Origin: Acidobacteriota bacterium
GTDB lineage: Bacteria > Acidobacteriota > Aminicenantia > Aminicenantales > Saccharicenantaceae
Length of the DNA: 64,000 nt
Direction of reading: 5' to 3'
NCBI GenBank assembly: GCA_033549365.1
Contig: JAWSUF010000002.1
Span: 286,082-350,081, forward strand
The number at the start of each line of letters is the position of its first letter. Positions within the stretch are counted from its first letter, which is position 1. Both the position numbers and the translations under genes were made by a program. Below are positions 1-42,245 of the stretch, one piece after another. Under the pieces are notes generated by a model. That model saw only the letters and a program-made list of their open reading frames with translations. It was not told the DNA's origin and ran no database searches.

Positions 1-1795
1 CCCCGATTTTGACGGGACAGGCCGTAAAACAGGCGCCGCATTTGATGCAGAGCGCCTGATCGATGACGTGGACTTTCTTTCGCTCTCCGGCAATGGCGTT
101 CACCGGGCAGGCTTTCAGGCAGAGAAGGCATCCGACGCATTTTTCGGGATCGATGGCGAAGGAAATGAGATTCTTGCAGACCCGCGCGGGGCAGGTTTTG
201 TCCTCGATATGGGCCCGGTATTCGTCGCGGAAATACCGCAGGGTCGAGAGAACGGGATTGGGCGCCGTCTGGCCCAGTCCGCACAGGGAGCCACGTTTGA
301 CCGTCCAGGCCAGCTCCTCCAGCTTTTCGATGTCGCCGGGGCGGCCCTCGCCCGCGGCGATTCCGGCCAGGATCTCGGCCATCCGGCGCGTTCCGATCCG
401 GCACGGCGCGCACTTGCCGCAGGATTCTTCCTGGGTGAAGCGCAGGAAATACAGGGCGATGTCGACCATGCAGGTGTCTTCGTCCATGACGATCATGCCG
501 CCCGAGCCCATCATGGCGCCGGCCCGGGTCAGGCTTTCATAGTCGACCGGCAGATCCAGGAGTTCGGTGGGGATGCAGCCCCCCGAGGGGCCGCCGATCT
601 GGACGGCCTTGAACTTGCGCCCGTTGGGAATGCCGCCGCCGATGTTGTTGACGATTTCGTCGAGGCGGATGCCCATGGGCACCTCGACAAGGCCGGTGTT
701 GTTGATCTTGCCGACCAGCGAGAAAACCTTGGTTCCCTTGCTCGTCTCCGTGCCCAAGCCGGCAAACCAGGCTGCTCCCCGGCGGATGATGGAGGGAACG
801 TTGGCCCAGGTTTCGACGTTGTTGATCGTCGTCGGTTGTCCCCAAAGCCCGCTCTGAGCCGGGTAGGGCGGCCGTTGCCGCGGTGCGGCGCGCTGGCCCT
901 CGATCGAGGCGATGAGGGCCGTTTCCTCTCCGGAAACGAAAGCGCCGGCGCCTCTCACGATCTCGACGTCGAAATCGAATCCCGAACCGAGGATGTTTTC
1001 TCCCAGCAGGCCGAATTCCCTGGCACTGCGAATGGCAATGTCAAGACGCTGAATGGCCAGGGGATATTCGTTCCGGATGTAGATGAAACCCCGGGCGGCG
1101 CTGATGGCCCGGGCTGCGATGACCATGCCCTCAAGAACGGCATGGGGGTCGGCTTCGAGAACGGACCGGTCCATGAAGGCTCCCGGGTCGCCCTCGTCGC
1201 CGTTGCAGATCAGGTATTTGGGCGAAGCTTTTTCCTTCCGGCACAGATCCCACTTTTTTCCGGTGGGAAACCCGGCGCCGCCCCGGCCGCGGAGTCCCGA
1301 GGCGCTGATTTCCGCAATGATCTCTTCGGGCGTCATTTCCGTCAGGGCCTTGGCCATGGCCTGGTAACCGTCGTAGGCAATGTACTCCTCGATTTTTTCC
1401 GGATCGATGCGGCCCCGGTTGCGAAGAACGATGAGGCGTTGATGCCGGAAGAATTCGATGTCGGCCATCTTGGGAACAGGCTTGGTGTCGGCCGGAGGCG
1501 TATACATGAGCCGGGCGACCGGTCGGCCTTTGATCAGGTGTTCCTCGACGAGCAGGGGAATGTCGTCGACGGAGAGTCTCTGGTAAAAGATGTCGTCGGG
1601 ACGCACGAGAACGATGGGCCCTTTCTCGCAGAACCCGTTGCAGCCCGTCGCCACGACCAGGATCTCGTCGGCCAGCCCGCGCCGTTCAATTTCCTTCTTG
1701 AGGGCTGTTTTGACGTCGAAAGCTCCGCACGAGACGCATCCCGTTCCGGCGCAAACCAGGAGATGAGCGCGATGGTGTTTCAATGGTATCCTCAA
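1..1795 (-). CDS. NuoF/HydB-like NADH-binding flavoprotein (51-kDa family) of a multimeric [FeFe]-hydrogenase-type complex; 3' end lies beyond the left edge of the window
   Basis: The minus strand is open across the whole interval. Revcomp of 481-540 reads LTRAGAMMGSGGMIVMDEDTCMVD, and revcomp of 1-60 reads CIKCGACFTACPV (4Fe-4S motif). The N-terminus MKHHRAHLLVCAGTGC is a thioredoxin-like 2Fe-2S domain. It is paralogous to 38608-41784. It is missing from the ORF track only because no stop falls inside the window. The start is TTG at 1795 (TTGA overlap with the upstream stop) or TTG at 1783. Confidence 0.8.
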   Translation of the reverse strand, partial: MRIPLKHHRAHLLVCAGTGCVSCGAFDVKTALKKEIERRGLADEILVVATGCNGFCEKGPIVLVRPDDIFYQRLSVDDIPLLVEEHLIKGRPVARLMYTPPADTKPVPKMADIEFFRHQRLIVLRNRGRIDPEKIEEYIAYDGYQAMAKALTEMTPEEIIAEISASGLRGRGGAGFPTGKKWDLCRKEKASPKYLICNGDEGDPGAFMDRSVLEADPHAVLEGMVIAARAISAARGFIYIRNEYPLAIQRLDIAIRSAREFGLLGENILGSGFDFDVEIVRGAGAFVSGEETALIASIEGQRAAPRQRPPYPAQSGLWGQPTTINNVETWANVPSIIRRGAAWFAGLGTETSKGTKVFSLVGKINNTGLVEVPMGIRLDEIVNNIGGGIPNGRKFKAVQIGGPSGGCIPTELLDLPVDYESLTRAGAMMGSGGMIVMDEDTCMVDIALYFLRFTQEESCGKCAPCRIGTRRMAEILAGIAAGEGRPGDIEKLEELAWTVKRGSLCGLGQTAPNPVLSTLRYFRDEYRAHIEDKTCPARVCKNLISFAIDPEKCVGCLLCLKACPVNAIAGERKKVHVIDQALCIKCGACFTACPVKIG

Positions 1796-2178
1796 TACAT
1801 GGTTTCGCTGCCGACGGCCAGGGCGTATTCGGCGACAATCCGGCCGTCCAGGACGTGTTCGGCGATGACCCGCCGCATCTTGTCCGGGGTGAGCCGAACA
1901 TACTTGACGGGAGGCTGGTCCTTGATTTCGACGGTGGCCATGGGTTCGCGGTTGCAGAGCCCGGCGCAACCCGAGGTGGTCACGATGACGTCCTGAAGAC
2001 CCCGGCTGCGGATCTCTTCCAGGAGGGTTTCCATGATATCCCTGGCCCCGGCGGCGATGCCGCAGGTGCCCATGTGAACCGTCACCTTGGCCCGGCCGGC
2101 GCCGTCGCGCAGAACGGTCAGCGACCGGGTTTTGTCCCTCATTGCGGCGAGGTCTTGAATCGTCAGTTTTTTCGTCAT
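1792..2178 (-). CDS. NuoE/HydC-like thioredoxin-fold [2Fe-2S] ferredoxin subunit
   Basis: 128 aa with four Cys in the NuoE pattern (HMGTCGIAAGARD ... TTSGCAGLCNREP). It lies directly upstream of the NuoF-like gene, and its stop overlaps the next start. Confidence 0.8.
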   Translation of the reverse strand: MTKKLTIQDLAAMRDKTRSLTVLRDGAGRAKVTVHMGTCGIAAGARDIMETLLEEIRSRGLQDVIVTTSGCAGLCNREPMATVEIKDQPPVKYVRLTPDKMRRVIAEHVLDGRIVAEYALAVGSETMY

Positions 2179-2750
2179 CGGCCCGAAACCTCTCCCTTGT
2201 TCTGAGATGCGGCCCCGATCTCTTCGAGGCCGTTGCGAAGCGCCTGCTGTATCGCTCCGATCGTCGCCGGATCCGCCGGCGTTCCGCCGGCGTCACGCGG
2301 CAGGAAACGCGAACTGGAAAACGCGAACGCCCGTCCGTCGCGCCTGTGGCGGTACCGAAATTCGATTCCGGGATGGCCGAAGATGAGTATCATCAATGTT
2401 TCGGCCATTTTTGTCAAGGGTTGGCGGTCGATATGGGAATGGCGGAAGCGGGCGGTGATTTGCGTTCCCCGGCCCGGCTTCGAGTCGATTTTGATGTCGC
2501 CGCCGGCCTGGCGTGCGGCTTGGGCCAGGAGCGGCAATCCCAGGCCCGTCCGTTTGGCGCCGGTTGTGAAAAACGGATCGAGGGCTTGAGCGACGGTCTC
2601 TTCGGACATGCCCCGGCCGTTGTCGGCGACCCGAAGAACAAGAAGGTCGCGGGCTGAGTCCTCCCGAACGGAGATGGCGATGCGCGTCGCTCCGGCCGCG
2701 GCGGCGTTTTCGGCCAAGTCCATGACGTGGAAGGACAGATCTTCCATCAT
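2175..2750 (-). CDS. GHKL/HATPase_c-domain protein (histidine-kinase-like ATPase or Ser kinase of the hydrogenase regulatory module)
   Basis: N-box VADNGRGMSEE, G-boxes DPFFTTG and GLGLPL, then GTQITARF. It makes an ATGA overlap with the upstream PHP gene. Confidence 0.7.
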   Translation of the reverse strand: MMEDLSFHVMDLAENAAAAGATRIAISVREDSARDLLVLRVADNGRGMSEETVAQALDPFFTTGAKRTGLGLPLLAQAARQAGGDIKIDSKPGRGTQITARFRHSHIDRQPLTKMAETLMILIFGHPGIEFRYRHRRDGRAFAFSSSRFLPRDAGGTPADPATIGAIQQALRNGLEEIGAASQNKGEVSGR

Positions 2751-3481
2751 GTCCGGAGAACCCCCCGCCCCTCGAGGCCGGCCAGAGCCTGCCGGATCTC
2801 CCGGATGGAGGGCTCGGCGAGAAGAAAAAGCGTCGACCGGCGGCCGATTTCGTCCGGCTGGTGGGCGTCCGAGGATTGAATGACCGGCAGGCCGGAGGCT
2901 TCGTCGAACTCCCCCGCTTTGTCCGGAGATGCGGACTCCAAGGCGTCCAGCCGCAGGTCCGGAGGGATGAATCCGAGTTGGGCGATGATGCCGAAGGCGC
3001 TTCTGTCGAAATGGGAGGCGACGGCCAATCCGTTGTGAGCATGAATGAGGTCGACGACCTCCCCGGCCGACAGGGCGGTTGCGCCCATGAGGAAGGCCGG
3101 ATGGAACCCGGAGACTCCGTCGAATTCGTCCGCGATGATCTGATCGCGGACAAAGGTTTTTCTTGAGTCCGGCATCGGCAGGTTCGAAGCCACGGCGGTT
3201 TCCACGGGACGGATGTCCTCCAGGCTCTCGAACAGACCCAGGATATGGACCTCTTCGGAGGACGTGATCTCAATGCCCGGAAAAACCCGAAGGCCCGATT
3301 CCGCCGCCGCCCGGACGGCCGCCGCCGTGTTCGCCGCCGTATTGTGATCGCAGAGGGCGATGATGTCCAGTCCGGCCTTGCGGGCCTCATCCACGATGCG
3401 GCGGGGGGACATCTCGACTTCGCCGCAGGGCGAAAGACAGGAATGAATGTGCAGATCGGCCCGGTAGCGTCTCAGGGCCAT
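2747..3481 (-). CDS. PHP-domain (polymerase/histidinol phosphatase-like) metal-dependent phosphoesterase
   Basis: The true start is MALRRYRADLHIHSCLSPCG at 3481 (His-x-His PHP motif; DIIALCDHN follows). The long Arg-rich N-terminal extension in the track looks like high-GC read-through, not coding. Confidence 0.75.
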   Translation of the reverse strand: MALRRYRADLHIHSCLSPCGEVEMSPRRIVDEARKAGLDIIALCDHNTAANTAAAVRAAAESGLRVFPGIEITSSEEVHILGLFESLEDIRPVETAVASNLPMPDSRKTFVRDQIIADEFDGVSGFHPAFLMGATALSAGEVVDLIHAHNGLAVASHFDRSAFGIIAQLGFIPPDLRLDALESASPDKAGEFDEASGLPVIQSSDAHQPDEIGRRSTLFLLAEPSIREIRQALAGLEGRGVLRT

Positions 3482-3822
3482 CAGGCTCCGCGAAGGCCGA
3501 GACCATGAAGGCGGCCGGCCAGTTCGAAGGCGCCGAGAGCGCTGCCGAGCAGCGGCAGCCCCTCCTTTTCGGCCCTCTGGACGGTCTCCGGTTCGGGAGT
3601 CCGGCCGCCGGAGATAACGACGCCCGCAAGATCCTTGAGGACGGCGACGGCGACGATATTGGGATGAATCTGAATGGTGATCCACAGAACATTCTCTCCG
3701 CCGCGGGCCATCACATCGCTCAGGAGGTCTCCGGCATAGCCGCTCTTGACGGCGCGTTGAAGCCCGTTCTCACCGGCGAAAACAGTGAGATCAAGCCGGG
3801 CAACCAGTTCGGCCAGGGTCAT
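3481..3822 (-). CDS. DRTGG-domain protein (small regulatory domain typical of [FeFe]-hydrogenase operons)
   Basis: About 113 aa from MTLAELVARLDLTVF..., including VVISGGRTPEPETV. Its stop overlaps the PHP start (TGATG), and its start overlaps the HydS stop (ATGA). Confidence 0.55.
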   Translation of the reverse strand: MTLAELVARLDLTVFAGENGLQRAVKSGYAGDLLSDVMARGGENVLWITIQIHPNIVAVAVLKDLAGVVISGGRTPEPETVQRAEKEGLPLLGSALGAFELAGRLHGLGLRGA

Positions 3823-5093
3823 GGTGTCTCCTTCCAGGTCATGGGACAGTCGCGGATGTCGGCCAGACCGCGGACGATGTCGTCGGCCAGAGTCGCGCAA
3901 TACGGCGCGCCGCAGAAGCCGCAATCCTTTCCGGGAAGCCGCTGGAGGATTTCGTCGCGAAGGCCGGCTTTGCGGATGGCTTCGGCCGGATCGGCGTCCA
4001 GCGGAGCGGAGGGTTGGGGTTCCAAGGGATGCTGGAACGACAGGAAATTTTCCCGGTACATGGTCCGGATCTCGCTTCTGTCGATGACGGATTTATCACC
4101 GGCTTTTTTGGCCAGGTGCAAGATGCGGCTTTTGGCCAGAAAACGGTTCTCGATCGACAGGGGCCCGCCCACGCAGCCGTCGGGACAGACCATGCACTCC
4201 AGGTAGTCGACGTCCCGGAGAAGACCGGATTCGACCTGATCCAGCACGTGAATGGTGTCCTGAACCCCGGAAACGGCCACGGTTCTGAACTTGGGCAGAC
4301 TGCGGGTTTCTCCGCCGGAGATGGACCAGCCGATGCCGAGACCGCTCATCGAAGAATCCGGAAACAGGTGCCGCATGATGGCCGTGTCGTCTTTTTTTCG
4401 GAGGATATCGAGAATCGGCGGATAGATGTCGCGGATGGAAACGGCGCCGTCGAGAAAGGACTTTTTCATGGTTGCCGGGTGATTGATGGACACAAGTTTG
4501 GCCGGGCAGGGCGTGATGTGAATGATGCCGATATCTTCGGGCTTGAGTTTCAAGGCCGCGGGCAGCGTCGAACGCAGAATTTTGGCGCCGATTTCCCGCG
4601 GCGGCTCGAACGGGACAATGAGCTCGCTGAGAGCCGGGAAGCGGCGCTGGATGAGCCGGACGACGACGGGGCAGGTCGAGGCGATGACGGGACGGGGCTG
4701 GGCGTGTTCGGTCAGATATTCCTCGACGGCGGCGATATAGAGTTCGCAGATCGCGCTGAGGTCGTAGACGTGGTCGAAGCCGATTTTTCTGAGGGCGTAA
4801 AGGATTTCGTAGGGAAGGACGCTGTTTCCGAATTGGCCGTAAAGGGCCGTGGCCGGAATGGCGACTTTGTAGGCGAACCTCTGCAGGTCGGAAAAGGATG
4901 TCGTGTGGGATTCGATGGCGTCCCGGGGACAATGCCGGATGCATTCGCCACAGTCGATGCACTGCCGGTCGATGACGCGGGCCTTGCCGTCCCGGATGCG
5001 GATGGCCTGGGTCGGGCAGGCGGTCAGGCAGTGGACGCACCCCGTGCATTTGTTGAGATTGATGCTGATGGCGTGCTGTTTTGCCTGAGTCAT
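3819..5093 (-). CDS. HydS-type putative sensory [FeFe]-hydrogenase (H-cluster domain, no PAS domain)
   Basis: Two N-terminal 4Fe-4S motifs (CTGCVHCLTACP, CIDCGECIRHCP). H-cluster-like motifs STCPVVV (L1), HITPCPAK (L2) and ECMVCPDGCVGGP (L3). A C-terminal Cx2Cx4Cx16C motif (CGFCGAPYC...16...C), as described for Thermotoga HydS. Confidence 0.8.
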   Translation of the reverse strand: MTQAKQHAISINLNKCTGCVHCLTACPTQAIRIRDGKARVIDRQCIDCGECIRHCPRDAIESHTTSFSDLQRFAYKVAIPATALYGQFGNSVLPYEILYALRKIGFDHVYDLSAICELYIAAVEEYLTEHAQPRPVIASTCPVVVRLIQRRFPALSELIVPFEPPREIGAKILRSTLPAALKLKPEDIGIIHITPCPAKLVSINHPATMKKSFLDGAVSIRDIYPPILDILRKKDDTAIMRHLFPDSSMSGLGIGWSISGGETRSLPKFRTVAVSGVQDTIHVLDQVESGLLRDVDYLECMVCPDGCVGGPLSIENRFLAKSRILHLAKKAGDKSVIDRSEIRTMYRENFLSFQHPLEPQPSAPLDADPAEAIRKAGLRDEILQRLPGKDCGFCGAPYCATLADDIVRGLADIRDCPMTWKETP

Positions 5094-5533
5094 GGCCGGG
5101 ACCCGTCCAGACAAACTGTGATCTCCAGACGTGTCCCCTGGCCCGGTTCGGAGGTCAGATGGAAGACGTCGGAGTTTTTCCGGATGTTCGGCAGTCCCAT
5201 GCCGGCGCCGAATCCGAGCTCGCGCATTTCACGGGTCGCCGTCGAAAACCCTTCCTTCATGGCCAAGTTGATGTCGGGGATGCCCGGGCCTTCATCGTCA
5301 ACGATGATGGAAACTTTTTCCGGTGTGACGGCCAGGCTGATCACGGCCTGCCGGGCATACATGATCACGTTCATTTCGGCTTCGAAGGCGGCGATGGCGA
5401 GACGCCGTACGGTCCCCGCGTCGATTCCGATGTCTTTGAGGAGATTCTTGATGCGGCAGGAGACATCGCCGGCCCGGGAAAACTCGCGGCCCTTGACCGA
5501 AAATTCAGTGCGAAAAGCCTTGTCCCCGGTCAT
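5090..5533 (-). CDS. RsbW-like anti-sigma-factor/Ser-Thr kinase (HATPase_c) protein
   Basis: 147 aa with IVDDEGPGIP and GFGAGMGLPNI GHKL motifs. Confidence 0.7.
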   Translation of the reverse strand: MTGDKAFRTEFSVKGREFSRAGDVSCRIKNLLKDIGIDAGTVRRLAIAAFEAEMNVIMYARQAVISLAVTPEKVSIIVDDEGPGIPDINLAMKEGFSTATREMRELGFGAGMGLPNIRKNSDVFHLTSEPGQGTRLEITVCLDGSRP

Positions 5534-5536
5534 CCG

Positions 5537-5875
5537 TCACTTCCCGTTCAGAAGCGCACCCATCCGCGTGCAGGCCTCGAACATGGGAAGAGGGGTTGAA
5601 GCAAGGGGCAAATCGTTCTTGAGGGCTTCCGCGATGATGTCGTCCGCCGGACGCTTGCCCTGGACGAAAACCACGGCGGCGATATCCGCCAGGGTGGCTG
5701 TCCGGACAACGTGGATATTGGCCAGTCCCGTTAAAAGAAGAGTTCCCGAATGGGCGAAGGCCAGGACGTCGCTCATGAGATCCGAGGCGAAAACGCGGGA
5801 AAAACGATGGGCGGTTTTGACGCCCGGCGTCAGGATGTCGCCCTGGAGCCGGACCAGGACGTCGTCCAGAGTCAT
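5537..5875 (-). CDS. DRTGG-domain protein (second copy)
   Basis: 112 aa. Architecture and position match the first DRTGG gene: it follows a NuoE-like gene and precedes a HATPase gene. Confidence 0.55.
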   Translation of the reverse strand: MTLDDVLVRLQGDILTPGVKTAHRFSRVFASDLMSDVLAFAHSGTLLLTGLANIHVVRTATLADIAAVVFVQGKRPADDIIAEALKNDLPLASTPLPMFEACTRMGALLNGK

Positions 5876-6411
5876 GTCGACGCCCTGCCGCGGCGGCCGG
5901 ATTTCTTTTTTCCGGTCTTGTCTCCGCCGGCCGCTTTTTTGTTTTCTGATTCCTGCGTCAACGCCGCCAGCACCTCGTCGGCCCGGGATTCCGTCATTTG
6001 GCCGTAGTATCGTCCGTCGACGACGACAAGGGGCGCCAGGGCACAGGCACCCAGGCAGTTGACACGCTCGAGCGTGAACTCGCCGTCGAATGATGTGCGG
6101 CCGGGTTCCAAGCCCATCCGCCGCGCGAAATGATCGAGAACGGCCCCGGCGCCGCGGACATGGCAGGCCGTTCCCATGCAGACCGTGCAGGTATGGCGTC
6201 CCCTGGGTTCAAGATGAAAGGATTTGTAAAATGTGGCCACGCTGTAGATATGGGACAGGGGAATATCCAGTTCCGCGGCCACCCCTTCGAGAATTTCGGG
6301 GGAAAGCCAGCGGGTTTCATCCTGGATATCCTGGAGAATGGGGATCAGGGCGTATTGACGCCCCTGATACCTGGCGATGACGTTTTGAATGGCGGCTGTT
6401 TCCGATATCAC
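5872..6411 (-). CDS. NuoE-like [2Fe-2S] ferredoxin subunit (third paralog in the window) with a Lys-rich C-terminal tail
   Basis: CTVCMGTACHVRGA ... CLGACALAP. The stop overlaps the downstream DRTGG start. Confidence 0.8.
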   Translation of the reverse strand: MISETAAIQNVIARYQGRQYALIPILQDIQDETRWLSPEILEGVAAELDIPLSHIYSVATFYKSFHLEPRGRHTCTVCMGTACHVRGAGAVLDHFARRMGLEPGRTSFDGEFTLERVNCLGACALAPLVVVDGRYYGQMTESRADEVLAALTQESENKKAAGGDKTGKKKSGRRGRAST

Positions 6412-6501
6412 GCGCGGCTCCTTTCGTCGGTCCCTTTTCTTTCCCCGGAGTCTCTCGTCCGGGCATGGTTGACTATAAGCGAAGGCCGGGACACGCCCTT
6501 G

Positions 6502-7086
6502 TCAGCGGCAACGCTGCCAGTCCGATTCACTGAACAAACGGTCGAGTTCTTTCCAGAGATCCTTGACGTGGCAGCTCATATAAATCAGATCCTGGGCGGC
6601 GCCCTCGATATCCTTGACGAAATCGGGGAACAGGGTGTCTTCGCGGAAACCCAATTTGCGGAAAATGAGCTGGGCGCCGACTTGAGGCCGCATCAGGCGG
6701 GCGACGATGGTCTCGACGTTTCGGCGTACGGCGATGAAGTAGAGTTCGCGGATCATGACCGTGCCCAGCCCCTTGTTGCGAAACGGCCGGGCGATGATGA
6801 CGCGGATTTCGGCCTGGTGTTCGCTCCAGCGCTCCCCGGAGAGTTCGAGATGTCCGTCGGCGATGATTTTCCCGTCGTGAAAGGCTCCGATGCGGATATG
6901 ATCGCCCGCTTCGATGCGCTGCAGCCTCCGGCTGACGATTCTCTTGTCGGTGACGTCGACACGAAGGTATTTCCGGTCTTCGCGGGGCAGTCCTGCGTAA
7001 AAGGCCATCAGCGCGTCGAGATCGTCAAGGGTCAGTTCCCGGATGATGACTTCAGTGCCGTCTTTCAGGTTTTCTGTTTTTTCCAT
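6502..7086 (-). CDS. GNAT family N-acetyltransferase
   Basis: 194 aa with acetyl-CoA motif A RNKGLGTVMIREL. Confidence 0.7.
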   Translation of the reverse strand: MEKTENLKDGTEVIIRELTLDDLDALMAFYAGLPREDRKYLRVDVTDKRIVSRRLQRIEAGDHIRIGAFHDGKIIADGHLELSGERWSEHQAEIRVIIARPFRNKGLGTVMIRELYFIAVRRNVETIVARLMRPQVGAQLIFRKLGFREDTLFPDFVKDIEGAAQDLIYMSCHVKDLWKELDRLFSESDWQRCR

Positions 7087-7208
7087 GCGGATTCGTCCCC
7101 TCTCATTGGAATCACGGTCAGGCCGCCTTTATAATCATGGCAGATCGTCGATAAACCTGATTGTATGTAAGCCCCGCCCCGAATGTCAAGGAAGTCGGAT
7201 GTCGCGGT

Positions 7209-7238
7209 TTGACAGGCTGTCTCTCCGGGTGCTATCTT
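7209..7238 (+). promoter_or_regulatory. Putative sigma70-type promoter for the histidine kinase gene
   Basis: TTGACA (7209-7214), an 18-nt spacer, then TATCTT (7233-7238). It sits about 15 nt upstream of the 7253 start. Confidence 0.3.
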
Positions 7239-7252
7239 GAGAACCAGCGGCG

Positions 7253-9268
7253 ATGCGAAGATTCATCCGGCGTTATCTCGATCTCCCCTTGCGACGCAAG
7301 TTGAATCTGAGCTTTCTTTCCGCCGCCGTCATCGGCAGTATCATTTTTTTTGTCATTGGGACACGGCTTGTCCACCGGACCGTTTTTTCACTGGCTCAGG
7401 CCAAGGTCGGACATGACTTGTCCGCCGCCTGGATGGTTTACAACGACCGTTTGAAGGGCCTGCTCGACACCGTCCGGTTGAGCGCGGCCATGGAATGTGT
7501 TCAGAATGCCCTGCAGGCCGGCGACCGGCCGGCCGTGGTGGAGAAACTGGAAGGGATCCGCCTCGAGTACGACATGGATGTTTTCACGGTGACCGATGCC
7601 TCCGGAAGGACCGTTCTCCGGACACATCGCCCGGATGTTTTCGGGGACGATCTTTCCGGAAACCCGATCCTGGCCGCGGCCCTTTCCGGCCGCGCCGCCG
7701 CCGGAACACGGATCGTCTCCCATGAAGAACTTCTCCTTGATGGCGAGGAGTTGGCCGGCCGGGCGTTTTTCACAATTGTTCCCACTCCCATGGCCGTCGA
7801 ACGGATCGAGGATTATGAAGACCGGGGGATGATGATGGAAGCGGCGGCTCCGGTTTTCAGCGAAAGGGGAGAATTTCTGGGAGCCCTGCGCGGGGGGATT
7901 GTTCTCAACCGGAATTATGAAATCGTCGATCTGGTGAAGGACGTCGTTTTCAAAGGAGAGCGCCATCAGGACAAAGACATCGGAACGGCGACGATCTTCC
8001 AGAACGATCTTCGCATCGCCACGAATGTTCTGGACGATCAGGGCAACCGGGCGGTCGGGACGCGCGTCTCCCGGGATGTTCATCAGGCGGTTCTCAAAGA
8101 AGGCCGGGCCTGGATGGGACGTGCCTTCGTCGTCCGGGACTGGTCTATCACGGCCTATGAACCCATCCGTTCCTTCGAGGGAAACATTGTCGGCATGCTC
8201 TATGTCGGGATGCTGGAAAAACCGTATATCGACCTCAGAAACAGGGTTATGGGTGCCTTCGTATTTCTGGGGGGCCTGGGAACGGTTTTTCTCCTGGCCC
8301 TTTTCTCGATCATCGCCCGGAGCATGACGCGGCCGATGCGGGACCTCGTCGATGCCACGGAGAGAATCGCCCGGGGTGATCTCGATCACCGCCTGCGCGT
8401 CGAAAGACGCGATGAGGTCGGTCAATTGGCCGCCGCGTTCAACCGGATGACGGATGATCTGAAGAGCGCCCGGGAAAGCCGGATCGAATGGGGACGCACT
8501 TTGGAAAAACGGGTCGAGGAGCGGACGCAGGAGTTGCGGGATATGCAGGACGCACTCGTTCAGTCGGAGAAACTGGCCTCCCTCGGAAAAATGGCGGCCG
8601 GCGTCGCCCACGAAATCAACAATCCGCTGACGTCCATTCTCATCCAGACCCATCTTCTTCTTGAAAAATGCGATTCGGGCGGCGAGGCCAGAAGCTCGTT
8701 GAATCTCATCGCCGAAGAGGCGGAGCGCTGCACGCAGATCGTTCGGGGGCTTCTCGAGTTTTCCCGAAAAATGCCGGCCCGGACCGCCCCCGAGGATGTC
8801 AACGGTCTCGTCGAAAGAACCCTGCAGCTTCTGACGAACCAGATCGCGGTGCGCAGCATCGCCCTCATCAAATCCCTGGATCCCGCGCTGCCTTCCGTGG
8901 AACTCGACAGAAACAAGATGCAGCAGGTTTTTTCCAATCTTGTCATCAATGCCTGCGAGGCCATGCCCTCCGGCGGAACGCTGACCGTGTCCACCCGTCC
9001 CGGGGCGGACGGAGACGGCATCGAAGTGTCTTTCGCCGATACGGGGGGGGGGATCCCTGCGGAGAATTTGAAAAAAATATTTGACCCGTTTTTCACGACC
9101 AAAAATTTCGGGACCGGACTCGGCCTGGCCGTGAGCTACGGGATCGTCCGCCAGAGTGGCGGAACCATTCAAGTCCGAAGCGAACCTGGACGAGGTTCGG
9201 AATTCATTGTCCGGATTCCCCTGGAATTCCGGGCCGAGACAAGCGAAGCGGAGGAGGTTTCCCCATGA
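7253..9268 (+). CDS. Sensor histidine kinase with an extracytoplasmic Cache-like domain, HAMP, HisKA and HATPase_c
   Basis: A TM helix after residue 20, then a large periplasmic region, a second TM, a HAMP domain (RGDLDHRLRV...LAAAFNRMTDDL), the H-box AAGVAHEINNPLT and G-boxes DTGGGIP / GTGLGLAV. Confidence 0.85.
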   Translation: MRRFIRRYLDLPLRRKLNLSFLSAAVIGSIIFFVIGTRLVHRTVFSLAQAKVGHDLSAAWMVYNDRLKGLLDTVRLSAAMECVQNALQAGDRPAVVEKLEGIRLEYDMDVFTVTDASGRTVLRTHRPDVFGDDLSGNPILAAALSGRAAAGTRIVSHEELLLDGEELAGRAFFTIVPTPMAVERIEDYEDRGMMMEAAAPVFSERGEFLGALRGGIVLNRNYEIVDLVKDVVFKGERHQDKDIGTATIFQNDLRIATNVLDDQGNRAVGTRVSRDVHQAVLKEGRAWMGRAFVVRDWSITAYEPIRSFEGNIVGMLYVGMLEKPYIDLRNRVMGAFVFLGGLGTVFLLALFSIIARSMTRPMRDLVDATERIARGDLDHRLRVERRDEVGQLAAAFNRMTDDLKSARESRIEWGRTLEKRVEERTQELRDMQDALVQSEKLASLGKMAAGVAHEINNPLTSILIQTHLLLEKCDSGGEARSSLNLIAEEAERCTQIVRGLLEFSRKMPARTAPEDVNGLVERTLQLLTNQIAVRSIALIKSLDPALPSVELDRNKMQQVFSNLVINACEAMPSGGTLTVSTRPGADGDGIEVSFADTGGGIPAENLKKIFDPFFTTKNFGTGLGLAVSYGIVRQSGGTIQVRSEPGRGSEFIVRIPLEFRAETSEAEEVSP

Positions 9269-9648
9269 CTCAACCTGTTCGAAAAAGAATTCTTGTTGTT
9301 GATGATGAACAGATCGTCTGCAAGAGCATCCGGCAGGCTCTCGTCCGGGATGATGTCATCGTCGACATCGCGTTGTCCGCCGATGAAGCCCTCCGGCTGG
9401 AAAAGGCCGGTCCTTACGACGTCATCATCATCGACCTCATGATGCCGGGCGTCAGCGGCCTGGATCTCTTGAAATCCCTCAAGGAAATGAGTGTGAAAGC
9501 CCGGATCATCATGATCACGGGATACCCGACCATGCGGAACACCATCCAGGCCATGCAGATCGGCGCCTTTGAATTCCTCCCCAAACCCTTTCTTCCGTCC
9601 GACCTGCGCGGCGCCGTCGACCGCGCCCTGGAAACCCAACCGGACTGA
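9265..9648 (+). CDS. Stand-alone response regulator receiver (CheY-like)
   Basis: 127 aa with the acidic pocket ILVVDDE, the phospho-acceptor D in IIIDLMMPG and the conserved K in LPKPF. It overlaps the kinase stop by 4 nt. Confidence 0.85.
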   Translation: MTQPVRKRILVVDDEQIVCKSIRQALVRDDVIVDIALSADEALRLEKAGPYDVIIIDLMMPGVSGLDLLKSLKEMSVKARIIMITGYPTMRNTIQAMQIGAFEFLPKPFLPSDLRGAVDRALETQPD

Positions 9649-9869: not shown

Positions 9870-10742
9870 TCAGGTTTTGATGGCGGATTTGAGGGTGGCG
9901 CCGATGTCGGCCGGACTCTGCGCCACGTGGACGCCGGCCGCCTTCAGTGCCTCCATTTTCTCCGCGGCCGTACCTTTTCCGCCGGCGATGATGGCGCCGG
10001 CGTGGCCCATGCGGCGTCCGGGAGGCGCCGTCTGGCCGGCGATGAAGCCGACGACGGGCTTTTTGAACTCCGCCTTGATGTAGGCGGCGGCCTCCTCTTC
10101 GGCCGAACCGCCGATCTCTCCGATCAGAATGACGGCCTCGGTTTCGGGGTCGTCCTTGAAGAGTTTCAAAAGATCGACGAATTTCAACCCCACGATGGGG
10201 TCGCCGCCGATGCCGACGGCCGTGGACTGGCCGAATCCCTGCTGGGTCACCTGCTGCACCGCCTCATAGGTCAGTGTGCCGGACCGGGAGATGATGCCGA
10301 CGGTTCCGGGAGAGTGGATGGGACCGGGCATGATGCCGATTTTGCACTTTCCGGGGGAAATCACGCCCGGCGTGTTCGGGCCGATCAGCCGGACGGGATG
10401 ATCCTTGAGAAAGGTCTTGACCCGGATCATGTCGTAAGTCGGAATCCCTTCCGTGATGCAGACGACGAGTCCGACTCCGGCTGCGGCCGCCTCCATGATG
10501 GCATCGGCCCCGGCGAAAGGGGGAACGAAAATCACGGCCGCATCGGCTTTTTCCGCTGCGACGGCGTCGGCGACGGTGTTGAAAACGGGAATGTCGAGAT
10601 GTCGCGTTCCGCCTTTGCCCGGAGTCACTCCGGCCACGACGCGCGTGCCGTACTCCGCCATGCGGCCGGTATGGAACGTGCCCTCGCTTCCCGTGATGCC
10701 CTGGACGACCACTCGAGTCTCTGCGTTGATCAGAATGCTCAT
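9870..10742 (-). CDS. sucD: Succinyl-CoA synthetase alpha subunit
   Basis: 290 aa with the CoA-binding N-terminus [10 protein letters not shown] and the phospho-His loop SRSGTLTYE. Confidence 0.9.
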
Positions 10743-10767
10743 GGGATTCTCCTTTGTTTTCCTTGCG

Positions 10768-11925
10768 CTATTTCACCAGGGCGACGACCGTCTCGGCCGC
10801 CTCCTTCATTCCCGAAGCCCAGGAGAAGGTCAGCCCGGAATCCTTGAGGATTTTCTTGCCCAGATCGACGTTGGTGCCCTCGAGACGGATGACGATGGGG
10901 ATGTTCGTTCCCAGCTCCTTGGCCGCCTTGACGACGCCCGAGGCGATAAGATCGCAACGCACGATGCCGCCGAAAATGTTGATGAGGGCGCCTTTGACGT
11001 CAGGATCCGAGACCAGGATCTTGAAGGCGTTCGTCACCGCCTCCTCGGAAACGCCTCCGCCGACATCCAGGAAGTTGGCCGGCACGCCGCCGCTGTACTT
11101 GACGATGTCCATGGTGGCCATGGCCAGACCGGCGCCGTTGACCATGCAGCCGACATTGCCGTCGAGCTTGATGTAGTTGAGATCGTGCTTTGAGGCCTCG
11201 ACTTCGAGCGGCGATTCTTCGTCGAGATCGCGGAGTTCCCGGATCTCGGGATGACGGTAGAGCGCGTTGTCGTCGAAATTCATCTTGGCGTCGAGCGCCA
11301 GAACGTCGCCGTTCTTCGTGATGAGCAGGGGATTGATCTCGGCCAACGAAGCGTCGGTTCCCTCGAACGCCTTATAGAGAGCATCGATGAAGGCCACGGC
11401 CTGTTTGAAGGTTGAGCCTTTCAGGCCGAGCTTGAAGGCCAGGTTGCGGGCCTGGAAACCCAGAAGTCCCGTTCCCGGATGAATGAACTCCTTGATGATA
11501 AGCTCCGGAGTTTCGGCGGCGACTTTTTCGATCTCCATACCGCCTTCCGTCGATGCCATGATAACGGGCGCCTCCGTGGCCCGGTCGATGACGATACCCA
11601 GATAGAGTTCCCGATCGATGTCCAGTGCTTCCTCGACGAGAAGGCTCTTGACCTTCCTCCCCTCGGGTCCCGTCTGGGGCGTGACCAGCGTCATGCCGAT
11701 CATGTCCGCGGCCAGATTTGCGGCCTGTTCGGGTGTGTCGGCGATCTTGATTCCGCCGCCTTTGCCGCGCCCGCCGGCGTGGATCTGCGCCTTGAGGACG
11801 ACGCGGGAGCCGAGGCGTTGGGCGATCTCCTGAACCTGGTCCGGTTTCCCGGCGACTTCGCCGCGGGGGACGCGGACACCGTAGCGGGCCAGAATCTGCT
11901 TGGCTTGGAATTCGTGGATTTTCAT
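10768..11925 (-). CDS. sucC: Succinyl-CoA synthetase beta subunit (ATP-grasp)
   Basis: The true start is [17 protein letters not shown] at 11925, with a GGGAGGG RBS 7 nt upstream. The ligase-CoA C-terminus is [10 protein letters not shown]. Confidence 0.9.
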
Positions 11926-12285: not shown

Positions 12286-13251
12286 ATGGCGAAACCGAAA
12301 TTTGCGATTTACTGGGCCGCGAGCTGCGGAGGATGCGAGATCGCCTTCCTCGACATCAAGGAGAAGATCCTGGATTTCGATGCCGCGGCGGAACTGGTGT
12401 TCTGCCCCTGCCTCATGGACACCAAGTACTCCGATGTCGAGGCCATGGCCGATGAGGAGATCGATGTCACGCTCTTCAACGGCGGGATCCGCAACGAGGA
12501 AAACCTTCATCTGGCCCATCTTCTGCGGCGGAAATCGAAGGTTCTGGTGGCGTTCGGCTCTTGTGCCACCGAAGGGTGCATCCCGGGTCTGGCCAACCTG
12601 ACGACGAAAGAGGACATCCTGGATTATGTCTATCGCCGATCTCCGTCGGTGGCTCCCGGAAATACCGTGCTTCCGCAACTGGAGACCGAAACGCCGTTCG
12701 GGAAGCTCACGCTTCCCGCCATCCACGAAAACCTGAGGACGCTCGGGCAGGTGGTGGATGTCGACTACTTCATGCCCGGCTGCCCGCCCGTCGAGGAGCA
12801 GATCTGGGCGGTGGCCGAGGCCGCTCTTTCGGGCAAGCTTCCGCCCAAGGGGTCGCTCGTCGGCGTCAACCCCAAAACGGTCTGCGATGAATGTCCCCGG
12901 ACGAAGGACGTCAAGAAGGTCAAAGCCTTTCGGCGGCCCCATCTTGTCTCACCCCGGGACATCGATCCCGAGATCTGTCTTCTGGAACAAGGCCTCCTGT
13001 GCAACGGCCCGGCCATCCACGCCGGCTGCGGCGCCCTCTGCCCCCGGGTCAACCTGGGTTGCCGCGGCTGCTACGGCCCGGCGGCCGGCATCCAGGATGT
13101 CGGGGCCAAACTGGCCGGCGCCATCGCCTCGGTCATCGACAGCGATGATCCGGCCGAAATCGACGGCATCGTCGACCAGATCCTCGATCCGGTCGGAACC
13201 TTTTACCGGTTCAACCTGGCCGGTTCGTTTGTGGGGAGACGCGTAAGATGA
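12286..13251 (+). CDS. mvhG: [NiFe]-hydrogenase small subunit, group 3 (Mvh/F420-non-reducing type)
   Basis: The N-terminus AIYWAASCGGCEIAFLD is the proximal-cluster motif. Several further Cys clusters follow (GSCATEGC, CPRTKD, CGALCP, CRGCYGP). It overlaps the large-subunit start. Confidence 0.8.
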   Translation: MAKPKFAIYWAASCGGCEIAFLDIKEKILDFDAAAELVFCPCLMDTKYSDVEAMADEEIDVTLFNGGIRNEENLHLAHLLRRKSKVLVAFGSCATEGCIPGLANLTTKEDILDYVYRRSPSVAPGNTVLPQLETETPFGKLTLPAIHENLRTLGQVVDVDYFMPGCPPVEEQIWAVAEAALSGKLPPKGSLVGVNPKTVCDECPRTKDVKKVKAFRRPHLVSPRDIDPEICLLEQGLLCNGPAIHAGCGALCPRVNLGCRGCYGPAAGIQDVGAKLAGAIASVIDSDDPAEIDGIVDQILDPVGTFYRFNLAGSFVGRRVR

Positions 13252-14702
13252 AAACCATCACCATCGATCCCATCACCCGGCTGGAGGGACACGGCAAGAT
13301 TTCCATATTCCTCGACGACGCCGGAAACGTCGCCGATGCCTATCTTCAGATCCCCGAGCTGCGCGGGTTCGAGCAGTTCTGCATCGGCCGTCCGGTCGAG
13401 GAAATGCCCCGTATTACGACACGGATCTGCGGCGTCTGTCCCGAAGCCCATATGATGGCGGCGGCCAAGGCCTGCGACGCCGTCTATCACTGCGAACTGC
13501 CCCGCACGGCCAAGCTGCTGCGGGAGCTTCTTTATGTCGTTTTTTACGTCACCGACCATTCGACGCACTTTTACGCCCTGGGCGGCCCGGACTTCGTCAT
13601 GGGGCCAACCGCACCCAAAGCCCAGCGCAACATCCTGGGCGTCATTCACAAGGTCGGCGTTGAAATCGGCAAGAAAGTCATCGGCATGCGGGGCGCCTGC
13701 CACAACATCATCAAGCAGATGGGCGGGAAGTCCGTTCATCCCATCGGCGCCATTCCCGGCGGCATGAGCAAGGGCATGACGAAGGAGGAGCAGGCGGCGA
13801 TTCTGGCCAAGGGGAAAGAGGCCGTCGAATTCGCCAAGTTCTCGATCGGTCTTTTCAACTCCCTGGTTCTCGAAAACAAGGAGTATGTCGATCTCATCCT
13901 GAGCGACAGCTTCACGCACCGGACTTACAACATGGGACTCGTCGACGCGAAAAACCGCGTCAACTTCTACGACGGAGACGTCCGCGTCACCGGCCCGGAC
14001 GGCGCCGAACTGGCCAAGTTCAAACCGGCCGATTACTTGAACCATATCGTCGAGCATGTCGAGACCTGGTCCTACCTCAAGTTCCCCTTCCTTAAGAACG
14101 TCGGCTGGAAGGGCTTGGTCGATGGGCCAGACAGCGGCATTTACAAAGCCACGCCCCTCTCCCGGCTGAATGTTTCCGATAGTATGGCCACGCCTCTGGC
14201 CAATGAAGAGCATGACAAGATGTACAAAACCCTGGGCGGGAAGCCGGTTCATCAAACTCTGGCCACGCATTGGGCTCGCCTGATCGAGCTTCTCTATGCG
14301 GCCGAGCGCTGGGTCGAACTCGCTTCCGACCCGGAGATCACGGGCCCCGAATACCGCATCGTTCCGGACAAGACCCCGGACGAGGGCGTTGCCGTGGTTG
14401 AGGCCCCGCGGGGAACGCTTTTTCATCACTATAAAACCGACGAAAAGGGCCTTCTTCGGGAAGCCAACCTCATTGTGGGAACGACCAACAACAACGGCGC
14501 CATCAACCTTTCCGTCAAGAAAGCGGCTCAGGGATTCATCAAAAACGGCCGGGTCGACGACGGGCTCCTGAACATCGTCGAAATGGCCTTCCGGGCCTAC
14601 GACCCCTGCTTCGGCTGCGCCACGCACGCCCTCGGCCGCACCCCGCTCCGGGTTTCCGTCCACGATCACCGGGGCGAGATCATCAAGGATTTGAGGAGAT
14701 AA
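13248..14702 (+). CDS. mvhA: [NiFe]-hydrogenase large subunit, group 3
   Basis: N-terminal RICGVCPEAH (RxCGxCxxxH) and C-terminal DPCFGCATH, followed by a roughly 20-aa extension of the type removed by the maturation protease. Confidence 0.85.
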   Translation: MKTITIDPITRLEGHGKISIFLDDAGNVADAYLQIPELRGFEQFCIGRPVEEMPRITTRICGVCPEAHMMAAAKACDAVYHCELPRTAKLLRELLYVVFYVTDHSTHFYALGGPDFVMGPTAPKAQRNILGVIHKVGVEIGKKVIGMRGACHNIIKQMGGKSVHPIGAIPGGMSKGMTKEEQAAILAKGKEAVEFAKFSIGLFNSLVLENKEYVDLILSDSFTHRTYNMGLVDAKNRVNFYDGDVRVTGPDGAELAKFKPADYLNHIVEHVETWSYLKFPFLKNVGWKGLVDGPDSGIYKATPLSRLNVSDSMATPLANEEHDKMYKTLGGKPVHQTLATHWARLIELLYAAERWVELASDPEITGPEYRIVPDKTPDEGVAVVEAPRGTLFHHYKTDEKGLLREANLIVGTTNNNGAINLSVKKAAQGFIKNGRVDDGLLNIVEMAFRAYDPCFGCATHALGRTPLRVSVHDHRGEIIKDLRR

Positions 14703-18557: not shown

Positions 18558-18965
18558 ATGAGAGTCAAGCTCAGGGCCGGGCCCGAACAGCGGAAGTTTA
18601 TCGAGAGAATCGAGGAGCTGTCCGGAGAGGACATCTTCGCCTGCTACCAGTGCGGCCGGTGTTCGGCAGGTTGTCCGGTGGCCCTCGAGATGGACATCCT
18701 GCCCAATCAGGTCATCCGGCTGATCCAGTTGGGCCTCGCCGAAGAGGTCCTCGGTTCGAAAACCCTGTTTCTCTGCGCATCCTGCTTCACGTGCCAGTCC
18801 CGCTGCCCCAAGGGCATCGATATGGCCCGGGTCATGGAAGCCGTCCGCCACCTGCTCGAACCGAAAGGGAAAGACGTCTGCGGTCCGGACGAGATTACCC
18901 CGGAGCTGGCCAAGGAACTGCCCCAACAGGTTCTTGTGTCTCTGTTCCGCAAATTCAGCAAATAA
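18558..18965 (+). CDS. hdrC: Heterodisulfide reductase subunit C-like (2x[4Fe-4S])
   Basis: CYQCGRCSAGCP and CASCFTCQSRCP motifs. Confidence 0.8.
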   Translation: MRVKLRAGPEQRKFIERIEELSGEDIFACYQCGRCSAGCPVALEMDILPNQVIRLIQLGLAEEVLGSKTLFLCASCFTCQSRCPKGIDMARVMEAVRHLLEPKGKDVCGPDEITPELAKELPQQVLVSLFRKFSK

Positions 18966-18968
18966 GGT

Positions 18969-24809: not shown

Positions 24810-24831
24810 TCCCAACAAGCGAGGTGCGTCC

Positions 24832-25110
24832 ATGCCGGTGAGACACAGAGAAAAGCCGTTCGGGCTCCCTAAGCCCGAAACTCCCCATGGTGAGATCGTC
24901 ATCCTGGATGACCGGTGCAAGGGCTGTGCCTTCTGCATCGAATACTGCCCGCATGATGTGCTGGTGATATCCAAGAGGTTTAACATCAAGGGCTACCACC
25001 CCCCGGAAGTCGAAAAAGCCGAACTGTGCATCAACTGCGGTTTCTGCCGCATGATCTGCCCGGAGTTCGCCATTTACACCTATGAATCCACCACCGGGGA
25101 GAAACCATGA
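24832..25110 (+). CDS. korD: 2-oxoacid:ferredoxin oxidoreductase delta subunit (2x[4Fe-4S])
   Basis: CKGCAFCIEYCP and CINCGFCRMICP. Confidence 0.8.
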   Translation: MPVRHREKPFGLPKPETPHGEIVILDDRCKGCAFCIEYCPHDVLVISKRFNIKGYHPPEVEKAELCINCGFCRMICPEFAIYTYESTTGEKP

Positions 25111-37902: not shown

Positions 37903-37915
37903 TGTCGTTTACCTC

Positions 37916-41784: not shown

Positions 41785-42245
41785 TTCTTGTACTTCTTCA
41801 GGATCGGGACGACCTTGCGCATGGAGGTATGGGCATGGTAGTCCTTGTCGACCACGACGACGGGACCGATGGCACAACACCCCAGGCAGGCCACGGTGTC
41901 CAGGGTGAATTGTCCGTCCTTGGTGGTCTGGCCCGGTTTCACCTTGAGCTGGCGCTCGAATTCGTCCAGGATCTTGGGACCTCCCCGGACATGGCAGGCC
42001 GTTCCCAGGCAAACCGTACAGGTGTGCTTCCCGCGAGGGGCCAGGCTGAAGGCCCGATAGAACGTCGCCACGCCGATGACATCGACGAGCGGAATGTTGA
42101 GCGCCTTGGCCACCTGTTTCAGACAGTCTCGGGGAAGATAGTTGTATTCCTCCTGGATGTCCTGCAGGATGGCGATGAGAGCTTTCTTGTTTCCGCCGTG
42201 TCTGTCGACGAGCGATTGAATTTTCGCCGTCTCTACACGCAACAT
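41781..42245 (-). CDS. NuoE-like [2Fe-2S] ferredoxin subunit
   Basis: CTVCLGTACHVRGG ... CLGCCAIGP. Confidence 0.8.
   Translation of the reverse strand: MLRVETAKIQSLVDRHGGNKKALIAILQDIQEEYNYLPRDCLKQVAKALNIPLVDVIGVATFYRAFSLAPRGKHTCTVCLGTACHVRGGPKILDEFERQLKVKPGQTTKDGQFTLDTVACLGCCAIGPVVVVDKDYHAHTSMRKVVPILKKYKK

Follow-up and report, generated by a model that had tools for sequence, protein, structure and literature searches.

What is a hydrogenase of putative sensory type doing in the middle of an operon for a NuoE/NuoF-type enzyme, and with which proteins would it act? This question is raised by the left end of a 64,000-nucleotide stretch of contig JAWSUF010000002.1 (hereafter the window), where a gene for a HydS-like [FeFe]-hydrogenase stands between NuoE- and NuoF-like genes. 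The proteins of the window correspond to MDW7759804-807, on a 553-kb contig of a metagenome-assembled genome (MAG) labelled Acidobacteriota, and their nearest homologues come from Aminicenantes. An earlier note on this DNA had suggested that the locus is an H2-sensing phosphorylation switch that governs the expression of a hydrogenase, presumably a HydA. The answer that we favour, and hold to be rather probable, is that a putative H2 sensor of Group D and a cassette of partner proteins lie inside an operon for a flavin-based bifurcating enzyme of NuoE/NuoF type (HydABC/Bfu family) and form a HydS-centred signalling complex that resembles a partner switch. Positions 1-6411 carry nine co-directional genes, given here in operon order.

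5872-6411, minus strand: NuoE/HydC (BfuC)-like thioredoxin-like [2Fe-2S] subunit, 179 aa (Pfam 2Fe-2S_thioredx, E=7e-51)
5537-5875, minus strand: DRTGG-1, a stand-alone DRTGG-domain protein, 112 aa (Pfam DRTGG, 22.6 bits, just below the cut-off)
5090-5533, minus strand: HATPase-1, an RsbW/SpoIIAB-type GHKL ATPase, 147 aa (Pfam HATPase_c and HATPase_c_2)
3819-5093, minus strand: HydS-like [FeFe]-hydrogenase, 424 aa (2 x Fer4, Fe_hyd_lg_C, PF04060 FeS)
3481-3822, minus strand: DRTGG-2, a second stand-alone DRTGG-domain protein, 113 aa
2747-3481, minus strand: PHP-family metal-dependent phosphoesterase, 244 aa (Pfam PHP and PHP_C)
2175-2750, minus strand: HATPase-2, a histidine-kinase-type CA domain, 191 aa (Pfam HATPase_c, E=5e-18)
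1792-2178, minus strand: HydD-like small thioredoxin-like [2Fe-2S] protein, 128 aa (weak Pfam 2Fe-2S_thioredx match)
1-1783, minus strand: NuoF/HydB (BfuB)-like subunit, TTG start, truncated at the window edge (domain map)

All nine genes belong to one tightly coupled operon. Adjacent genes overlap by 1-4 nt (ATGA or TGATG) at six of the eight junctions, among them those at which the start of DRTGG-1 overlaps the NuoE stop and the start of DRTGG-2 overlaps the HydS stop, each by 4 nt; the other two are gaps of 3 and 8 nt. Such overlaps and short gaps are typical of translational coupling within an operon. The gene order, the domain assignments, the position of HydS between NuoE and NuoF and the description of its partners as kinase-like ATPases and a PHP phosphoesterase had all been given in the earlier note, and the map of open reading frames (ORFs) and the Pfam matches bear them out.

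We first ask what kind of protein HydS is. It consists of an N-terminal 2x[4Fe-4S] ferredoxin domain (Fer4 dicluster matches at residues 9-61), an H-domain (Fe_hyd_lg_C, E=8e-27, 94.8 bits) and a C-terminal Cx2Cx4Cx16C cluster domain (PF04060 match at residues 386-417). Alignment to solved [FeFe]-hydrogenases confirms that the H-cluster motifs are degenerate. ASTCP (within ASTCPVV) replaces TSCCP, CpI C299 becoming Thr140 while the C300 equivalent is retained, and TPCPAK replaces MPCxxK, M353 becoming Thr194 with K358 retained; ExMxCxxGC is intact. The H-cluster ligands C141, C196, C303 and C307 align to CpI C300, C355, C499 and C503 and are invariant in an alignment of 74 diverse relatives that are 29-69% identical. 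All of the ferredoxin-domain cysteines are present (C16, C19, C22, C26, C45, C48, C51 and C55), with seven of the eight invariant across these relatives and the eighth, C19, found in 66 of them. The four cysteines of the C-terminal motif, C391-x2-C394-x4-C399-x16-C416, are likewise invariant. This motif had been noticed before, as had the absence of a PAS domain, for which no match was obtained at E<=0.01; the protein ends eight residues past its last cysteine. At the M353 position 40 of the 74 sequences have T and 24 have S.

TamHydS is the only characterised member of Group D (M2e) (PMC8163306), and its group-specific proton path consists of E252, E289, S249 and D265 (PMC10407848). Mapped by motif offsets rather than by an alignment to TamHydS, the equivalents of the first three are present as E262, E299 and S259; the D265 equivalent is S275, a position at which the family has D in 41/74 and S in 15/74. 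The signature of a catalytic Group A HydA (TSCCPxW, the proton-relay Cys and the E279/E282/S319/R286 pathway) is not found in this protein, and the NCBIfam models for groups A and A6 return 99 and 86 bits against cut-offs of 406 and 765 bits. Since all of the sequence features by which Land et al. define the M2e/Group D subclass (PMC8163306; see also PMC3561251) are present, we assign the HydS-like protein to Group D (M2e); judged from its sequence it is almost certainly a putative sensory [FeFe]-hydrogenase of this non-PAS type, as had been supposed. TamHydS itself assembles an H-cluster, shows low turnover, an increased affinity for H2 and reversible interconversion of H+ and H2, and has been proposed to be a sensor (PMC8163306). 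Exposure to H2 shifts its secondary structure (PMC13104023).

Two departures from the family pattern may be recorded here. In L017 (Zixibacteria) and L018 (Ignavibacteriales), with HydS near 10001-11260, the motif reads SNCCPSVV and the proton-relay Cys, otherwise lost in the family, is kept. In P0198, a protein of 4122 aa, 14 separate stretches match the HydS query, the best of them covering query residues 89-207; a giant repeat protein or an error of assembly may lie behind this.

The case for partner proteins is made by the conservation of the genes around HydS. The family comprises 343 clusters at 50% identity (E<=1e-30), and at least 591 species genomes were matched in a locus scan that used a 14-sequence HydS alignment, the 74-sequence alignment being too diverse for this purpose. 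We inspected 81 distinct related loci from Aminicenantes and other Acidobacteriota, Ignavibacteria, Chlorobiaceae, Zixibacteria, Stahlbacteria, Eisenbacteria, Bacteroidetes, Fibrobacteres, Planctomycetia, Deltaproteobacteria and many Bacillota. Across them the order DRTGG, RsbW-like ATPase, HydS, DRTGG, PHP is nearly invariant, as the following counts show, each given per loci with room for the gene.

DRTGG gene upstream of HydS: 77 of 78 loci
HATPase-1: 77 of 79 loci
DRTGG gene downstream of HydS: at least 66 of 77 loci
PHP: 64 of 73 loci
HATPase-2: 50 of 69 loci

Natural gene fusions follow the same order. HydS is fused to an upstream HATPase_c_2 domain in P0162 and to a downstream DRTGG domain in six representatives, DRTGG is fused to HATPase-1 in L016, L028 and L029, and PHP to HATPase-2 in L041, L046 and L051. 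Thus four adjacent gene pairs occur fused, in gene order, and besides these there is a direct DRTGG-HydS fusion (P0122, P0215). Gene order, start/stop overlaps and fusions together point to the two DRTGG proteins, the RsbW/SpoIIAB-like ATPase and PHP as candidate partners of a Group D protein, and we consider it likely that HydS forms a physical complex with DRTGG and HATPase-1. A variant of the cassette is found in L078 and L044, where the order is DRTGG-DRTGG-ATPase-HydS with neither PHP nor HATPase-2 and where NuoE and NuoF follow directly; in L078 NuoG-like and NfnA-like genes come next, as they do in the relatives of the window described below.

The operons that the cassette accompanies are more varied than the cassette. 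NuoF lies within 10 kb in 30 of the 43 loci with full flanks. The end module of the NuoEF operon is a true HydA in 16 loci, mostly of Bacillota. In 13 others, which include Chlorobiaceae, Ignavibacteria, Acidobacteriota and one Aminicenantes, it is a BfuA protein that has no H-domain and is followed by MvhD, the small and large [NiFe] subunits and a maturation protease. It is a GltB-like protein in four Aminicenantes loci, and in three loci (L001, L078 of Planctomycetia and L007 of Stahlbacteria) it is NuoG-like or NfnABC-like; the NuoE-first arrangement of the window recurs in L007. Hydrogenases, whether [FeFe] or [NiFe], are the commonest identified neighbours. We set aside the matches to the NiFe large subunit in the short Aminicenantes loci L004, L009, L010, L013 and L024; they are probably spurious, since these loci show no MvhD or BfuA match and leave no space for the gene.

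To which of these types does the operon of the window belong? Its NuoE-like gene has a GTG start with AAAGGAG upstream, and the product matches the NCBIfam HoxE/NuoE models at E=1e-47 to 1e-40, under the equivalog cut-offs. NuoF has an N-terminal 2Fe-2S domain, the FMN/NADH site, SLBB and NADH_4Fe-4S domains and a C-terminal 2x[4Fe-4S] domain; its final codons, about 23 in number, lie past the window edge, and the full-length orthologue in L001 and L083 is 617 aa. The two proteins thus have the features by which the BfuC (NuoE-like) and BfuB (NuoF-like, with N-terminal 2Fe-2S and C-terminal 2x[4Fe-4S]) subunits are described (PMC9304861). The earlier note had presumed that hydA follows NuoF beyond the window edge. 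Three metagenomic contigs with 94.7-97% DNA identity to the window, L001, L083 and L084, extend past its left end, and in each of them NuoF is followed, in order, by genes for a 747-aa NuoG/FdsA-like protein, an NfnA/NfnS-like protein, an NfnB/GltD-like protein and an acetate-kinase-like protein. The 747-aa protein has Fer2_4, NADH-G_4Fe-4S_3, Fer4, Molybdop_Fe4S4 and Molybdopterin domains and lacks Molydop_binding. Its alignment is gapped where FdsA has CARVCHS, which we take to be the Cys-His stretch that provides the Mo ligand. The gap and the missing Molydop_binding domain led us to reject an active formate dehydrogenase, and the sequence suggests that BfuA of the window operon would be NuoG/FdsA-like and cofactor-less. 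A second ORF with an H-domain was not found anywhere in the 64-kb window. The genes downstream in the relatives and the H-domain scan of the window together lead us to reject a hydA gene, whether beyond the left edge of the window or at any place within it. With no hydA nearby the narrow claim that the switch controls hydA expression fails, by a test that the earlier note had itself set, although an Mvh-type [NiFe] enzyme, the nearest hydrogenase, is encoded about 6 kb away (12286-14702, plus strand). To go by its relatives, the Bfu enzyme of this organism would not be a [FeFe]-hydrogenase; the gene for its NuoG-like subunit is probably followed by NfnAB-like genes.

Duplication of the module, and of NuoE within it, had also been suggested, and this view can be kept in part. 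The two DRTGG proteins are 31% identical to each other (E=4e-13) and are, at this low identity, old paralogues. Between the two ATPases hardly any alignment can be made (26% over 65 aa, E=0.17), and they belong to different subfamilies. The second "NuoE", the 128-aa 2Fe-2S protein, shows no match to the first; its identity to the 2Fe-2S domain at the N-terminus of NuoF is 37%, which marks it as HydD-like. HATPase-2, for its part, is a CA domain with conserved N, G1, F and G2 boxes that has no DHp/His domain and carries a conserved C-terminal extension of about 85 aa. It corresponds to "hisK", as the 128-aa protein does to "hydD", accessory genes of HydABC/Bfu operons whose products are not subunits of the holoenzyme (PMC9304861). 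A recent duplication of the module is accordingly rejected, and from these comparisons ancient duplication is limited to the DRTGG gene.

What might the small partners do? HATPase-1 has the SpoIIAB/RsbW fold and the features of a GHKL Ser/Thr kinase or anti-sigma-type protein, with its ATP-binding N, G1 and G2 boxes intact. It is clearly closest to the partner-switching kinases and can be described as a putative Ser/Thr kinase or anti-sigma-like switch protein. The DRTGG proteins share the invariant residues D32, S35 and T49. In a structure model of the DRTGG protein S35 lies at the N-terminus of a helix, where it is a plausible phospho-acceptor site. Sequence searches of the PDB with HATPase-1 and DRTGG-2 returned nothing useful. 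PHP retains all of the residues that are invariant in its family (H11, H13, D45, H46, E71, H79, H157, D205 and H207), and we presume these His, Asp and Glu residues to be metal ligands.

These considerations suggest the following mechanism. HydS would bind an H-cluster and act as a slow, high-affinity converter of H2, properties that we propose to follow from the replacement of the proton-relay Cys. It would be held in a complex with the two DRTGG proteins and the RsbW/SpoIIAB-like ATPase. A change in H2 or in redox state would alter the conformation of HydS and, with it, the binding or activity of the ATPase toward the DRTGG proteins. The ATPase would then switch partners, phosphorylate a DRTGG protein, or both, and PHP, possibly acting as a protein phosphatase, would reset the switch. 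The output would fall on the co-encoded Bfu enzyme or, more widely, on H2/redox metabolism. These steps do not deserve equal confidence. That H2 is the signal sensed by HydS has, we think, slightly better than an even chance, and phosphorylation of a DRTGG protein is a tentative proposal that we would sooner doubt than assert. The output may be on gene expression or on the Bfu enzyme; the cassette includes no DNA-binding protein or sigma factor, and control of expression is therefore not established.

Several observations weigh against a signalling complex of this kind. Inspection of the nine operon genes revealed none for a sigma factor or DNA-binding protein. In 13 of the 43 loci with full flanks no NuoF gene is encountered within 10 kb. 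The DRTGG partners do not have a STAS fold; a STAS-like fold was rejected by fold comparison, which gave DRTGG/HprK-N instead, and we know of no DRTGG protein that serves as a phospho-acceptor. The nearest solved relatives of PHP are the nucleotide phosphoesterases pAp-phosphatase and RNase AM, and not protein phosphatases. The hydEFG maturase genes were not found in the 64-kb window, where the radical-SAM proteins considered as candidates are members of other families. H2 does not reduce the C-terminal cluster of TamHydS (PMC13104023). Finally, signalling by the partners, be it phosphorylation, complex formation or a response to H2, is for every member of the family something that we infer.

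The last two of the sequence and biochemical points, the hydEFG genes not found in the window and the unreduced cluster, also speak for HydS as a redox sensor and not a sensor of H2. It would then either lack the [2Fe] subcluster, like Nar1-type proteins, or report the poise of ferredoxin or NAD(P)H through its Fe-S clusters, and the cassette would tune Bfu-type enzymes to the redox state of the cell. The presence of the cassette beside non-hydrogenase Bfu operons (GltB-like, NuoG-like/Nfn-like and NfnABC-like) agrees with this idea. However, residues in contact with [2Fe] are conserved throughout the family (52/74 sequences have an equivalent of K358 and 48/74 one of E252), and TamHydS accepts the [2Fe] cofactor and is reactive toward H2 (PMC8163306, PMC10407848). 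Moreover, hydrogenases are the commonest neighbours, and in L056, a Bacillota MAG, hydE, hydF and hydG (5215-9032; NCBIfam equivalogs above cut-off) abut the cassette directly upstream of DRTGG-1. We regard the redox-sensor reading as improbable.

In a second alternative, which we find quite improbable, the accessory genes encode an ATP-dependent system for assembly, repair or nucleotide signalling and not a phospho-switch. The GHKL ATPases would be clamps or chaperones, PHP would cleave pAp or an (oligo)nucleotide and DRTGG would bind a metabolite or nucleotide. The best NCBIfam and solved relatives of PHP (pAp phosphatase, RNase AM and TrlF-type PHPs) fit such roles, as does the DRTGG fold, which is common to the regulatory regions of CBS-pyrophosphatase and HprK/P and to the MurE/F N-domain; HATPase-2 and HydD, present in Bfu operons and yet outside the holoenzyme, could be explained in the same way. 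This alternative is opposed by the kinship of HATPase-1 with the partner-switching kinases, by the invariant Ser and Thr of the DRTGG proteins and by the placement of a small-protein gene directly before a kinase gene, which recalls the order spoIIAA-spoIIAB.

The least probable alternative makes HydS the catalytic module of this Bfu complex, an unusual bifurcating hydrogenase in which it is docked on the NuoG-like BfuA as the [NiFe] HydSL is in NiFe-HydABCSL; the location of the gene between NuoE and NuoF, the lack of a HydA in the window or downstream in the relatives, the full set of H-cluster cysteines with a ferredoxin-like entry domain and the reversible activity of TamHydS (PMC8163306) speak for it, but in 16 loci the cassette stands next to a complete [FeFe] HydABC operon and in 13 next to a Bfu operon of [NiFe] type, neither of which needs an extra catalytic module, HydS always has genes for ATPase, DRTGG and PHP at its sides and is fused to them in some genomes, and the protein lacks the proton-relay Cys and belongs to a group with low reported turnover (PMC10407848).

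As a whole, then, we retain the reading of a Group D putative H2 sensor that works through a partner-switch-like complex. A bolder form of it would be that the cassette is a self-contained, non-canonical partner-switching machine, with DRTGG in the place of STAS and PHP in that of PP2C, and a general H2-responsive governor of Bfu-family enzymes. We think this unlikely as it stands. If it were true, bifurcating hydrogenases of [NiFe] type would be among the governed enzymes, as would NAD(P)H/ferredoxin enzymes that are not hydrogenases, the governor would act in many phyla with no catalytic [FeFe]-hydrogenase nearby, and the natural fusions would identify the proteins, long sought, with which Group D sensors interact.

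The start of the operon and the surrounding genes add some further observations. The strongest promoter-like site for the operon, TTGACA-18-TACAAT at 7189-7160, matches 11 of 12 consensus positions and, judged from this match, is possibly the operon promoter; five sigma-70-like sites of that quality were found where 1.3 were expected. A GNAT gene lies between this site and NuoE. It is kept in the close relatives L001 and L083-L085 and may be co-transcribed with the HydS operon. A search for a sigma-54 promoter upstream of the operon was negative, with fewer matches in the window than expected by chance and none in 6400-7300, and an Rfam search of the window returned no RNA family.

7160-7189, minus strand: sigma-70-like promoter match TTGACA-18-TACAAT, upstream of the GNAT gene (consensus match only)
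6502-7086, minus strand: GNAT acetyltransferase gene, between the best promoter-like site and NuoE

Divergent from the operon, at 7253-9648 on the plus strand, are genes for a dCache/sCache-HAMP-HisKA-HATPase kinase (671 aa) and a REC-only response regulator (127 aa), a pair that may represent a separate transcriptional input. A kinase of the same Cache-HAMP architecture and a sigma-54 activator neighbour the cassette in L025 (Chlorobiaceae), a PDZ/GAF/PAS-type sensor kinase and a sigma-54 activator lie upstream of it in L002, and large HATPase-containing ORFs are near it in L011, L014, L017, L018, L021, L026 and L043.

Farther to the right is the [NiFe] hydrogenase mentioned above. The best solved matches of its large subunit are that of the bifurcating NiFe-HydABCSL (7T2R_D, E=1e-117) and MvhA (E=5e-117); an MvhD gene was not identified among the scanned ORFs of the window. 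These genes and those that follow them are listed here.

12286-13251, plus strand: MvhG-like [NiFe] small subunit, 321 aa
13248-14702, plus strand: MvhA-like [NiFe] large subunit, 484 aa
14711-16168: acetate kinase, after the [NiFe] hydrogenase
16660-18498: HEAT-repeat protein, after the acetate kinase
18558-21886: HdrC-, HdrB- and HdrA-like genes, after the HEAT-repeat protein

Two further loci on the plus strand are unrelated to H-cluster maturation: at 23136-25107 a 557-aa FAD_binding_2 flavoprotein adjoins a small 2x[4Fe-4S] protein, and at 47700-49247 there is a radical-SAM protein with an HMPTM-type zinc ribbon. A second operon of NuoEF type occupies 36325-42245 on the minus strand; operons of this second type directly adjoin the HydS cassette in other Aminicenantes (L002, L004, L010 and L024).

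41781-42245, minus strand: NuoE of the second operon
within ORF 38608-42249, minus strand: NuoF fused to a GltD-like Fer4_20 and Pyr_redox_2 module
37916-38668, minus strand: Fer2_4/Fer4 protein of the second operon
36325-37902, minus strand: Glu_synthase-like protein of the second operon

How much of this is new? That M2e/Group D genes lie close to those for protein kinases and trimeric bifurcating hydrogenases has been on record since Calusinska 2010 and Carere 2012 (PMC3561251), so that the H2-sensing idea at the core of the earlier note is the published hypothesis for the Group D family, to which the window adds a member. In the searchable literature of 8 million papers, which does not include Calusinska 2010, Poudel 2016 and Greening 2016, two mention DRTGG together with hydrogenase, and by title and abstract neither appears relevant. 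Relative to this literature, in which we did not find them, the new elements are the full cassette with its two DRTGG proteins and PHP, the evidence from fusions and the presence of the cassette beside Bfu operons of [NiFe] and non-hydrogenase type. The interaction partners and signalling complex of TamHydS have been named as the critical missing step (PMC13104023, 2026), and the locus described here and its 81 relatives bear directly on that question. Occurrence of the cassette beyond [FeFe] operons, with [NiFe]-type and non-hydrogenase Bfu enzymes, points to a possibly wider control in anaerobic redox metabolism. Taken alone the window is for the most part unremarkable: it adds, from an Acidobacteriota MAG, one more family member of typical kind in an unusual operon context. 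It is a useful lead to the partners of Group D.

Comparison with known systems places the locus more precisely. Related Group D loci have been described as TTE0887, Cthe_0335, Athe_1292 and Teth39_1463 (PMC3561251). With TamHydS of Thermoanaerobacter mathranii the protein shares the 2x[4Fe-4S] domain, the four H-cluster cysteines, Cx2Cx4Cx16C, the lack of PAS, the loss of C299, the change of M353 to a hydroxyl residue and the equivalents of E252 and E289. It differs in having Thr for Ala at C299, Met for Leu at M497 and Ser at D265, in its Aminicenantes-like Acidobacteriota host and in a Bfu operon that appears to end in NuoG-like and NfnAB-like genes, not in a Group A HydA. The Group C (M2f) proteins TmHydS, R. 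albus HydS and HfsB have likewise lost the proton-relay Cys and gained an extra C-terminal four-Cys cluster, and their genes also lie near those for bifurcating hydrogenases and for Ser/Thr kinases or phosphatases; Group C, however, has a fused PAS domain and a link to PP2C-type phosphatases (HydDB), whereas the window has no PAS and has DRTGG, RsbW-like and PHP partners. HydDB also lists a "histidine kinase-linked" sensory subgroup C1.

The likeness to the modules SpoIIAB-SpoIIAA-SpoIIE and RsbW-RsbV-RsbU lies in a single-domain protein of about 110 aa encoded directly upstream of the kinase and in a phosphoesterase gene in the same operon. In the window, by contrast, the candidate antagonist is of the DRTGG/HprK-N and not the STAS type, the phosphoesterase is PHP and not PP2C, no sigma factor is encoded among the nine genes, and it is HydS that comes after the kinase gene. 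Like the operons for HydABC and NiFe-HydABCSL (PMC9304861), that of the window has NuoE-like, HATPase-2 ("hisK"), HydD-like and NuoF-like genes in the same local order. It departs from them in the insertion of the HydS cassette between NuoE and hisK and, as judged from the relatives, in a NuoG/FdsA-like BfuA that lacks the Mo-ligand stretch and is followed by NfnS- and NfnL-like genes. The sensory system HoxBC/HoxJ (HydDB group 2b) has an unrelated metal site and unrelated proteins, and HoxJ is a classical PAS-histidine kinase that works with a response regulator; the analogy is that in both cases a slow hydrogenase would serve as H2 sensor, coupled to an ATP-dependent signalling protein.

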